Shown one piece after another: positions 1 to 25,946 of a stretch of 64,000 nucleotides of DNA; positions within the stretch are counted from its first letter, which is position 1, and every line of letters starts with the position of its first letter. Both the position numbers and the translations under genes were made by a program. The DNA comes from Escherichia coli (GTDB lineage: Bacteria > Pseudomonadota > Gammaproteobacteria > Enterobacterales > Enterobacteriaceae): assembly GCF_041886205.1 (NCBI RefSeq), contig NZ_CP169029.1. One strand, 5' to 3'. The notes under the pieces were generated by a model. It did not search any database. It saw only the letters and a list, made by a program, of their open reading frames with translations, and had not been told where the DNA came from.

Positions 1-710
1 CTGATTAGCCACTGCACGGTTACGGTCTGCATATTCACCGGGCCAGTAACCCGCACCTTTTCGGGGAGGGATAAGCGCGCTGATTTTCTTACGCCGCAGT
101 TCATCGTGACATAGCCGGGTATCGTAAGCGCCATCGGCGGCGGCTGACCTGATTTTCCGGTGGGTTTGCCGGATTAACCCGGGGAAGGCCTCTGAGTCCG
201 TAACGTTGTTCAGCGACAGGTCAGCGCAGATGATTTCATGTGTTTTACTGTCAACGGCGAGATGCAGCTTACGCCAGATACGGCGGCGTTCCTGGCCATG
301 CTTTTTGACTTTCCACTCGCCTTCACCGAAGACCTTCAGCCCGGTGGAATCAATTACCAGGTGTGCGATTTCACCCCGGGTGGGCGTTTTGAAACTGACA
401 TTAACCGACTTTGCCCGCCTGCTGACACAGCTGTAATCCGGGCAGCGTAGCGGAACGTTCATCAGAGAAAAAATGGAATCAATAAAGCCCTGCGCAGCGC
501 GCAGGGTCAGCCTGAATACGCGTTTAATGACCAGCACAGTCGTGATGGCAAGGTCAGAATAGCGCTGAGGTCTGCCTCGTGAAGAAGGTGTTGCTGACTC
601 ATACCAGGCCTGAATAGCTTCATCATCCAGCCAGAAAGTTATGGAGCCACGGTTGATGAGGGCTTTATTGTAGGTGGGCCAGTTGGTGATTTTGAACTTT
701 TGCTTTGCCA
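1..710 (-). CDS. IS903-family transposase, 3' end truncated by window edge (GTG start at 710)
   Basis: Minus-strand translation VAKQKFKITNWPTYNKALINRGS...DGAYDTRLCHDELRRKKISALIPPRKGAGYWPGEYADRNRAVANQ matches IS903 transposase as recalled; not in ORF track because it runs off the window. Confidence 0.8.
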
Positions 711-22397: not shown

Positions 22398-22514
22398 TCC
22401 TGGTTAAATTTCATTTTTCGCGGGTATAAAAAAACGATGGGGCGGGCAGTCCGGAAGACGTCAGGTCACAGGGATTTGACCCGCCCCTCCCTCACAGACA
22501 GTTGAGAATTATTA
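22398..22514. other. Candidate cos/packaging-site region between HNH and terminase genes
   Basis: GC-rich inverted repeat ggggcgggc...gacccgcccc; HNH-terminase systems usually place cos here. Confidence 0.3.
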
Positions 22515-24785: not shown

Positions 24786-25043
24786 TCAAATACTACCCTG
24801 TTGATGATTTCTCAGAAGCGAACTTGACTCCCAGGGGAAACTCAACTTTCCGTTAAAACCACCAGCAGACATTCGTTCAATTTCCACAGAAATATCACTG
24901 AGCCGTTCTTCAAGCTCTGCTTTTTCTTTTACCAGACGGTTATAGCGGCTTAGATGAAGCTTTTGCTGCTCCAGCCAGTCTTCAAGCTGTTCAACAGTCA
25001 TACCAGGGTTAAAAAAATATGGCTGCTGCTTTTCGCCCTGCAT
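24786..25043 (-). CDS. Hypothetical protein (first late gene; start moved to internal Met with GGAGG RBS)
   Basis: ORF-track ORF 24786-25112 overlaps predicted terminator; internal ATG at 25043 has RBS. Confidence 0.35.
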   Translation of the reverse strand: MQGEKQQPYFFNPGMTVEQLEDWLEQQKLHLSRYNRLVKEKAELEERLSDISVEIERMSAGGFNGKLSFPWESSSLLRNHQQGSI

Positions 25044-25062
25044 TATTGACCTCCAGAAAAGC

Positions 25063-25085
25063 AAAAACCCCGCCGAAGCGAGGTT
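25063..25085 (-). terminator. tR'-like intrinsic terminator with UUCG tetraloop downstream of late promoter
   Basis: minus strand cctcgc-ttcg-gcgggg followed by ttttt. Confidence 0.5.
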
Positions 25086-25130
25086 TGTTATGATTTCGTT
25101 AACGGCAGACATACAAAGCCCATCGTTAGG

Positions 25131-25170
25131 AGAATCCTAACCATATTTTTTGAAAAATGCAAGCATCATG
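25131..25170 (-). promoter_or_regulatory. Candidate late promoter (PR'-like) between Q and lysis genes
   Basis: minus strand TTGCAT - 17 nt - TAGGAT; palindrome ttaggagaatcctaa near predicted start. Confidence 0.3.
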
Positions 25171-25193
25171 TCGCCATCTTCGGCGAAAATCAT

Positions 25194-25946
25194 TTATCTT
25201 GTCACTTTTCTCAATTGTGTCTCTGCATATGCTTCTTCCTGCCAGCACTTTGTAACCAGTTTATCAATGACATCTGCATATCCTTTGTACCACTGATAAT
25301 CCGTCAGGTCTGGTACCAGCTTCTGGACATGATGCCGCGCCAGTGTGGTTGGTAAACGGCTAAACCGGTTTCCATTGCAACGCCCACAAATCTTATAAAC
25401 AGGCGTGCCATGAAGCCGGGTCCTTTTTTCATCCAGGACAATACCTTTACCCTTACACCCTCTGCACGCTGTGCTGACTTCTCCCTTACCATGACAATGC
25501 TGACATAGTTCCTTCACCCACTCTTCCTTGATAACAGATTCCCCGCTTCTGGAGTGTTTCACCACTTCGCGCAATACATTATGAAATCCAGTACCAGCAC
25601 AATGCTCACAGCGAGCCTTACTTGCCGCAGACCTGGAATAATCAGCAAAGGCAAAATTCACAAGGTAAGGAATAATCTGTAGCCGGGTTTCTTCACTCAA
25701 TTTATTCAATGTCGGGCTATCCAGTGCCATCGCGTAATTGAGCAGACCTTCAATCGCAAACTGAGGATCCTGAACACCAACTTTTGCCAGGAATAAGGCA
25801 AACCCAAGCGGTGCTTTCGACTGCACCATCCCCTGCGCAGCCATCACATCCGTAATTGTTAAACCACCAGAGCCTGTCGCCGGTGCGTCATCGCTCAATT
25901 TTGGAGATTTTGGGGAGTAATATTTCGGTAAGGCTTCAAGGTTCAT
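25194..25946 (-). CDS. Late antiterminator Q-like protein (multi-CxxC zinc-finger type)
   Basis: 250 aa with four CxxC pairs; located immediately upstream of late promoter/lysis cassette. Confidence 0.6.
   Translation of the reverse strand: MNLEALPKYYSPKSPKLSDDAPATGSGGLTITDVMAAQGMVQSKAPLGFALFLAKVGVQDPQFAIEGLLNYAMALDSPTLNKLSEETRLQIIPYLVNFAFADYSRSAASKARCEHCAGTGFHNVLREVVKHSRSGESVIKEEWVKELCQHCHGKGEVSTACRGCKGKGIVLDEKRTRLHGTPVYKICGRCNGNRFSRLPTTLARHHVQKLVPDLTDYQWYKGYADVIDKLVTKCWQEEAYAETQLRKVTR

Follow-up and report, generated by a model that had tools for sequence, protein, structure and literature searches.

A probable lambda-type late-gene control cassette, with PR′, pause element, and tR′, between the Q gene and the lysis genes of an Escherichia coli prophage

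The stretch of Escherichia coli DNA analyzed here (contig NZ_CP169029.1; 64,000 nucleotides [nt], referred to below as the window) carries on its minus strand a Q antiterminator gene, an 85-amino-acid (aa) open reading frame (ORF) and, further downstream on the same strand, genes encoding Phage_holin_8, Phage_holin_3_7, a GH19 endolysin, an ORF in the position of Rz, and then an HNH protein and the small terminase. The short gap between Q and the 85-aa ORF contains promoter hexamers, a palindrome, and a hairpin with a UUCG tetraloop, all three of which had been reported in an earlier reading of the sequence (the original prediction) and all three of which are present on the minus strand (Table 1). 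We conclude that the region from 25055 to 25162 (minus strand) is very probably (probability of roughly 0.87) the cassette by which a lambdoid prophage controls its late genes, comprising the late promoter PR′, a Q-binding element (QBE), a sigma-dependent pause element, and the terminator tR′. The family of the Q protein, the homology of the DNA element by element and in its spacing, the structure of the terminator, and the conservation of each slot among relatives are established directly. In all of these features, the cassette is an ordinary textbook switch of the lambda type.

Table 1. Features of the Q-to-lysis interval in the window; positions with a sign are relative to the predicted transcription start
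Feature	Coordinates	Strand	Details
Q antiterminator gene (250 aa)	25194-25946	-	stop codon TAA at 25196-25194
Gap from Q to the 85-aa ORF	150 nt	-	holds the hexamers, palindrome, pause element, and tR′ hairpin
Small hairpin UCGCC-GAAGAU-GGCGA	25171-25186	-	downstream of the Q stop codon, upstream of the -35 hexamer; -7.8 kcal/mol
PR′ -35 hexamer TTGCAT	25157-25162	-	aligns with TTGACT of lambda and P22; identical TTGCAT annotated as pR′ -35 signal in phi80
Promoter spacer, 17 nt	25140-25156	-	predicted to hold the Q-binding element, with core TTCAAAAAATATGG at 25154-25141; equivalent of the phi80 Q site at 25155-25149
PR′ -10 hexamer TAGGAT	25134-25139	-	same register as TAAATT of lambda and P22; other alleles TAAGAT, TAAAAT, TATAAT
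Palindrome GTTAGGA-TTC-TCCTAAC	25125-25141 (-14 to +3)		perfect, 7-bp arms
Discriminator TCTCCT, 6 nt	25128-25133	-	variable among alleles
Predicted +1 (25127) and pause element AACGATGGG	25119-25127	-	-10-like AACGAT at +1 to +6, GGG at +7 to +9; identical to lambda PR′ +1 to +9
Predicted pause position, +16 to +18 (A16, U17, G18)	25110-25112	-	from the lambda +16/+17 pause and its sequence requirement (PMC5001585, PMC4005639)
CGUU, possible 3′ arm of a 5′-terminal stem	25101-25104 (+24 to +27)	-	complementary to AACG at +1 to +4 (25127-25124)
Predicted leader RNA, ~65-69 nt	25060-25127	-	from +1 and tR′; predicted counterpart of lambda 6S RNA, made without Q
tR′ intrinsic terminator	25055-25086	-	hairpin AAACCUCGC-UUCG-GCGGGGUUU at 25086-25065 (+42 to +63), cUUCGg tetraloop, then UUUUUGCUUUUC to ~25055
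First late ORF, 85 aa, phrog_3501	24786-25043	-	Shine-Dalgarno sequence GGAGG at 25054-25050, ATG at 25043

The Q protein matches PF03589 (E = 1.9e-53; 179 bits against a cutoff of 26.7), named the Q-lambda family in PMC9388147, and phrog_127, described as “anti-termination protein Q-like” (E = 1e-108). A Pfam scan of the protein returned only PF03589 and a subthreshold DnaJ_CXXCXGXG match, with no sign of the Q21-type family (PF06530, whose cassettes also have a direct-repeat QBE) or the Q82-type family (PF06323). Compared with lambda Q by BLASTP, it is 35% identical over its full length (2e-42), with an insertion of 48 aa in the zinc-ribbon arm. An alignment with nine homologs indicated that the long arm with four CxxC motifs is typical of the family: the Q proteins of the window, phi80, HK225, SF6, Ehr49, and YeP3 have an extra 40 to 70 aa with two more CxxC pairs in the arm, while those of lambda and P22 are short. 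Judged from this alignment, lambda Q is the short outlier of its own family. In lambda Q, it is the arm that makes contact with the QBE and with sigma region 4.

The predicted promoter is positionally homologous to the mapped late promoters of lambda and P22, with identical spacing: a -35 hexamer, 17 nt, a -10 hexamer, 6 nt, and AACGATGGG. Lambda reads TTGACT-17-TAAATT-TGACTC-AACGATGGG, and the window reads TTGCAT-17-TAGGAT-TCTCCT-AACGATGGG; set in the same register, the lambda spacer, TATTGAATAAAATTGGG, shares 11 of its 17 bases with that of the window. The original prediction had the hexamers and their 17-nt spacing right but placed them at 25166-25138, about 4 nt away from their actual position at 25162-25134. 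Its broader proposal, that PR′ and tR′ are paired here and that Q would act on a short leader resembling 6S, is supported by the upstream gene of the Q-lambda family, by the DNA alignment with lambda and P22, and by the annotated counterparts in P22, phi80, and SfV.

What raises the region above chance is AACGATGGG, which had been missed. As in lambda PR′, exactly 6 nt separate it from the upstream -10 hexamer, and it occurs only twice on the two strands of the 64-kb window, where 0.49 copies are expected. In lambda, the determinants of the pause are the -10-like AACGAT at +1 to +6 and GGG at +7 to +9, which acts as a discriminator-like enhancer, and sigma70 re-binds AACGAT to give the +16 pause that is required for Q loading (PMC4005639, PMC5001585). 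In the window, the Y-G step at +17/+18 (U17-G18) together with G8 fits the elemental pause consensus. Among the viral contigs that share the -35 hexamer and spacer of the window, AACGAT is kept in 116/120, while the -10 hexamer (TAAGAT being more frequent than TAAAAT and TAAAAT more frequent than TAGGAT) and the discriminator vary. Lambda, P22, HK225, mEp237, SF6, Klebsiella phage 5, SPN3UB, and ST974phi18.2 all have a -35/-10 pair followed after 5 to 7 nt by AACGATGG, and a comparison anchored on the pause element found this module behind several different spacer modules. Variants of the element occur in phi80 (AACGCT), YeP3 (AAGGAT), BZS1 (AATGAT), and 640R1 (AATAAT).

Two further observations concern this element. 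The second copy of AACGATGGG in the window lies at 22433-22441 (plus strand), between the HNH endonuclease gene and the gene for the small terminase and in antisense orientation to both; no promoter context was apparent on reading the sequence around it, and we regard it as probably due to chance. It adjoins a G-rich stretch (GGGGCGGGCAG...CCCGCCCC). Within PF03589, a subclade represented by Aeromonas phage AsXd-1 (L385) and Klebsiella phage ST340-VIM1phi10.1 (L387) has TTGACT-18-TATGCT, no AACGAT at +1, and a -10-like TATA(A/T)C about 8 to 13 nt into the transcript, a geometry that suggests pausing further into the transcript, as occurs in phage 82.

The spacer of the promoter, which includes TTCAAAAAA, behaves differently from the pause element. 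Among 233 cassettes with a window-type Q, it is nearly invariant and almost always TTTTCAAAAAATATGG. Clustering paired each Q cluster one to one with a spacer of its own, while AACGATGG is common to nine Q clusters. Because the spacer tracks the type of Q while AACGATGG spans nine types, the binding element specific to each Q probably lies in the spacer, and the pause element is probably generic.

The tR′ hairpin heads the list of 14 terminator-like sites found in a scan of a 7-kb region, and its folding energy when folded alone (-13.1 kcal/mol; z = -4.75) was equaled by 0/200 shuffled sequences. It begins 48 nt past the -10 hexamer, as anticipated (about 50 nt), and it ends 12 to 25 nt before the Shine-Dalgarno sequence and the start codon of the 85-aa ORF, in agreement with its predicted place just upstream of the first late gene. 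A hairpin and T-run ending within +100 were found in 123/163 (75%) of the distinct related cassettes versus 49/1500 (3.3%) of random positions. The hairpins in this slot have a median span of +41 to +62, close to that of the window, and comprise 58 different sequences. Most of the phages compared have a hairpin and T-run soon after AACGATGG, and in lambda these follow at about +190; in SF6, none was found in the stretch read after AACGATGG. Equivalents of the tR′ hairpin are annotated in SfV (as a putative rho-independent terminator), phi80, P22, and HK225.

Matches between the window and other phages break between about +27 and the hairpin, at mosaic joints. In ST64B and Klebsiella phages, similarity to the window begins only at the hairpin and continues into the 85-aa ORF, which indicates that the terminator travels with the downstream module. 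The hairpin CCUCGCUUCGGCGGGG (CCUCGC-UUCG-GCGGGG) also recurs after Q in YeP3 (L011) and ST340-VIM1phi10.1 (L387), which are Yersinia and Klebsiella phages with a Q and a promoter unrelated in sequence, and a nearly identical hairpin (CCUCGC-CUCG-GCGGGG) follows Q in SPN3UB (L388). The joints before the hairpin and the many hairpin sequences imply that the terminator has been replaced repeatedly by recombination while the slot was kept.

From homology with lambda we infer the activity of the promoter, the position of the pause, the exact bases bound by Q, and Q-dependent readthrough, and the cassette would then operate as follows. The sigma70 holoenzyme would initiate at A 25127 from TTGCAT-17-TAGGAT, after which sigma region 2 would re-bind the nontemplate AACGAT (+1 to +6) with the help of GGG (+7 to +9), and RNA polymerase would pause in a scrunched state at about +16/+17. 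Without Q, escape would be slow and transcription would terminate at tR′, where the cUUCGg hairpin and its U-run extend from +42 to about +70, releasing a leader of about 66 nt and leaving the lysis and morphogenesis genes silent. After induction, Q (encoded at 25946-25194) would bind its site in the spacer, whose core is TTCAAAAAATATGG, engage the paused complex, and ride with the polymerase past tR′ and the terminators that follow it, into the 85-aa ORF and the genes for the holins, endolysin, Rz, and structural proteins.

Several observations weigh against this scheme. The hexamer pair agrees with the consensus at 7/12 positions, and sites this good occur about once per 120 nt of the window, so that the pair is not significant alone. 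A consensus promoter scan of the 7-kb region did not flag TTGCAT-17-TAGGAT, and therefore we do not rely on the quality of the hexamers. In lambda, the discriminator segment and the last T of the -10 hexamer form a -35-like TTGACT, the landing site of sigma region 4 in the Q-loading complex (PMC9388147), which aids the engagement of sigma region 4 and Q. The window lacks this sequence: at the corresponding position, 1 bp upstream of the pause element, it has TTCTCC, a poor match, and the common alleles have TTTTCC. Finally, since the arm of the window Q is 48 aa longer than that of lambda Q, its contacts may differ in detail.

One alternative is that there is no promoter in the gap, in which case the hairpin would simply terminate the early rightward operon, whose last gene is Q, and the late genes would be read from elsewhere. 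The weakness of the hexamers by consensus is in keeping with this, and the hairpin would halt any unmodified polymerase coming from Q, but the near-invariance of AACGATGGG 6 nt past a -10-like hexamer across nine Q types would be left unexplained, as would the base-for-base match to the PR′ of lambda and P22, where the start site has been mapped. Nor is there a better promoter-like site between Q and the lysis genes: consensus matches in the scanned region occur at chance frequency (4 found, 5.6 expected), and the sole other match, at 24804-24776, lies inside the 85-aa ORF. We therefore rejected the idea that the hairpin serves only as an early-operon terminator, and a promoterless gap seems extremely improbable. 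A different proposal, compatible with a late switch at this locus, is that the leader of about 66 nt is a constitutive prophage small RNA that acts in trans in the lysogen. There is a precedent in StxS, an Hfq-binding small RNA that arose from a PR′-tR′ by-product (PMC7547250), and short PR′ RNAs are made by lambda, 21, phi80, 82, and P22. The leader of the window combines a strong terminator hairpin and U-run with a possible 5′ stem and, in its predicted fold, a 14-nt unpaired A-rich linker, and a cassette of this kind survives in the cryptic K-12 prophage Qin, whose late genes are decayed. However, the stretch from about +27 to the hairpin is the least conserved part of the leader and a recombination joint, with 58 hairpins and many linkers among the relatives, which argues against a conserved seed. 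A search of Rfam 15 over 25055-25213 yielded no family at its gathering score; the best matches (rsmX, istR, and the rnk leader; 24 to 25 bits against 45 to 56; E = 0.05 to 0.7) scored below half of the gathering score, and all matches at E ≤ 1 were set aside as subthreshold and driven by the terminator. A trans-acting role for the leader is thus improbable.

The palindrome had been proposed as the Q-utilization element (qut). If it is a functional protein-binding site, it would be either that element or an operator through which a dimeric repressor shuts off PR′ in this allele; its dyad is centered at -6, and a dimer bound there would prevent open-complex formation. Compared with the common allele, three of the four substitutions each add a pair, and the perfect palindrome, found in 9/120 contigs, persists in 23/131 distinct contexts and with at least 3 downstream modules. 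Some pairing is, however, inherent in all alleles, since the -10 region makes up the left arm and the right arm closes with AAC from the pause element: alleles without the palindrome already form 2 to 6 of the 7 pairs. The right arm drifts to ACCTAAC, TGCCAAC, and TCTTAAC in diverged relatives, and perfect inverted repeats with 7-bp arms and loops of 3 to 8 nt number 61 in the window (19 to 29 in shuffled sequences). The perfect palindrome is a minority allele that is absent from SfV, mEp460, and the Stx2c-converting phages, despite Q proteins 98 to 99% identical to that of the window, and from K-12 Qin. Q proteins identical to the window Q except for S77N accompany palindromic and nonpalindromic alleles alike, and we found no substitution in Q that tracks the palindrome. 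Furthermore, the site of Q-lambda is 13 bp long, asymmetric, and free of repeats, and the protein occupies it as a monomer (PMC9388147), which implies that the palindrome is not the Q-utilization site. A protein-binding role for the palindrome is therefore very improbable, and its reading as an allele-specific operator is unlikely. The palindrome appears to be incidental, and the functional parts of qut are better placed in the spacer, as the predicted QBE, and in AACGATGGG, as the pause element. On the plus strand, the palindrome is followed by CATATTTTTT (a T-run to about 25151), and the terminator scan flags a weak terminator-like site there, oriented toward the Q gene (7 pairs, 3 of them G-C; 3-nt loop).

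The comparison of leaders also raised the question of an RNA structure at the 5′ end. The minimum free energy fold of the window leader pairs +1 to +4 with +24 to +27 and adds a weak inner helix (-6.4 kcal/mol; z = -0.7). In lambda (L001, 788-792 with 806-810), P22, HK225, and SF6, AACGA can pair with UCGUU at +19 to +23. Among the loci compared for the stem (L309, L322, and L390), both sides have changed in Ehr49-like phages (AACAG with CUGUU) and in Pantoea phage AH07 (UAGUG with CACUA); 640R1, BZS1, and some window-type alleles do not compensate. Because MAFFT failed to align the 3′ arms in one register, a register-free test with shuffled and swapped sequences was used, and its outcome was suggestive only (per-leader shuffle p = 0.01 to 0.37). 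The search with a 10-member Q alignment returned relatives of 90 to 100% identity, a set fit for population counts and not for deep covariation; the diversity for this comparison came from Ehr49-type and YeP3-type queries. It is conceivable, though doubtful, that the leader carries an undescribed conserved RNA element, a stem that starts exactly at +1 and in which the RNA copy of the pause element pairs about 19 to 27 nt downstream. If such a stem is under selection, it could give the late mRNA, and with it the leader of about 66 nt, protection against 5′-end-dependent decay, making the leader a stable prophage RNA like StxS, or it could act after the RNA threads the Q nozzle.

Most lineages, including lambda, P22, SfV, K-12 Qin, HK225, SF6, and the Ehr49-like phages, have a hairpin at the site that corresponds to the small hairpin upstream of the -35 hexamer. 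Its counterpart in lambda and P22 is UUGCCA-CGGA-UGGCAA, and in the Ehr49-like phages it has a 13-bp stem with compensating changes on both sides; it may mark or stabilize the 3′ end of the Q message. The 85-aa first late ORF has no Pfam match and is kept together with the terminator in ST64B (as sb50) and in the Klebsiella phages. A 108-aa ORF that starts from the ATG at 25112-25110 (minus strand) and runs in frame with the 85-aa ORF through the terminator hairpin was rejected as an artifact of the first-ATG rule, because its ATG (+16 of the leader) is missing in GTATACCC alleles and the start at 25043 has GGAGG. The promoter-like site at the end of the 85-aa ORF (TCAACA-17-AATAAT, 24804-24776, minus strand) has a TG-extended -10, and the first holin gene begins about 70 nt further on.

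The module was found in approximately 911 of 5426 complete E. coli genomes; one strain is 100% identical to the window. K-12 MG1655 has an intact cassette in Qin, downstream of ydfT/quuQ (L384, 5423-5358, corresponding to 1,642,422 to about 1,642,357, minus strand), with the same -35 hexamer and spacer, a -10 hexamer of TAAAAT, AACGATGGGCTTTGTAT, and the hairpin CCCGCTGATGAGCGGG. This copy predicts an unannotated RNA of about 65 nt that would start at 1,642,422 (minus strand) and can be looked for in existing K-12 data sets. A literature search for a promoter or transcript of quuQ/ydfT, or for the promoter of this type of Q, found nothing relevant. In the Stx2c phage, the 2.5 kb read downstream of PR′ resemble mEp460 in having genes for a lipoprotein and a methylase and a small ORF; stx itself lies beyond this stretch, and stx2c is presumed to be linked to the module in the Stx2c phage records. 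Expression of stx2 is dependent on the late promoter in Stx2 phages as a whole (PMC4645166). As a widespread textbook Q antitermination switch, the cassette has little meaning for new biology. Its value lies in annotation, in that exact coordinates are now available for PR′, the pause element, the probable Q site, and tR′ of a very common type of Q, and in the comparison itself, which indicates a generic pause element, a Q-specific spacer, and a terminator slot refilled by recombination.

Among the closest known systems are the copies in SfV, mEp460, the Stx2c-converting phages, and K-12 Qin (ydfT/quuQ), with Q proteins 92 to 99% identical to that of the window, an identical -35 hexamer, spacer, and pause module AACGATGGGCTTTGTAT, and the terminator at the same distance. 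They differ in having TAAGAT or TAAAAT as the -10 hexamer, no palindrome, the hairpin CCCGC..GAGCGGG in place of CCUCGC-UUCG-GCGGGG, and other downstream genes. StxS is likewise a short RNA from a constitutive late promoter that ends at tR′ in lysogens; however, it comes from a different late control region and is cut from a longer precursor by RNase E (PMC7547250), and we found no sequence relation between it and the window leader. P22 (AF527608; Plate/qut/t-late, gene 23) is annotated with the 5′ nucleotide of its late RNA on the first A of AACGAT, qut at -16 to +14, and tR′ at +31 to +59. In phi80 (JX871397; pR′, gp17), a TTGCAT -35 hexamer is followed immediately by a 7-bp Q site (annotated as protein_bind), the -10 hexamer, and a terminator about 50 to 80 nt past the -10. 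Both phages resemble the window in their short leader, and phi80 also shares its long-arm Q; in both, the spacer/QBE and hairpin sequences differ from those of the window, the pause element of phi80 is AACGCT, and the Q of P22 is short and lambda-like. The PR′-qut-tR′ region of lambda itself has a leader of 194 nt, compared with about 66 nt in the window, hexamers TTGACT/TAAATT instead of TTGCAT/TAGGAT, a -35-like TTGACT beside the pause element that the window lacks, and a Q arm that is 48 aa shorter, and because its spacer (QBE) differs, a different Q specificity is expected. Nonetheless, lambda and the window share the same Q family, the same order of Q, promoter, pause element, terminator, and lysis genes, the same spacing, and an identical AACGATGGG.

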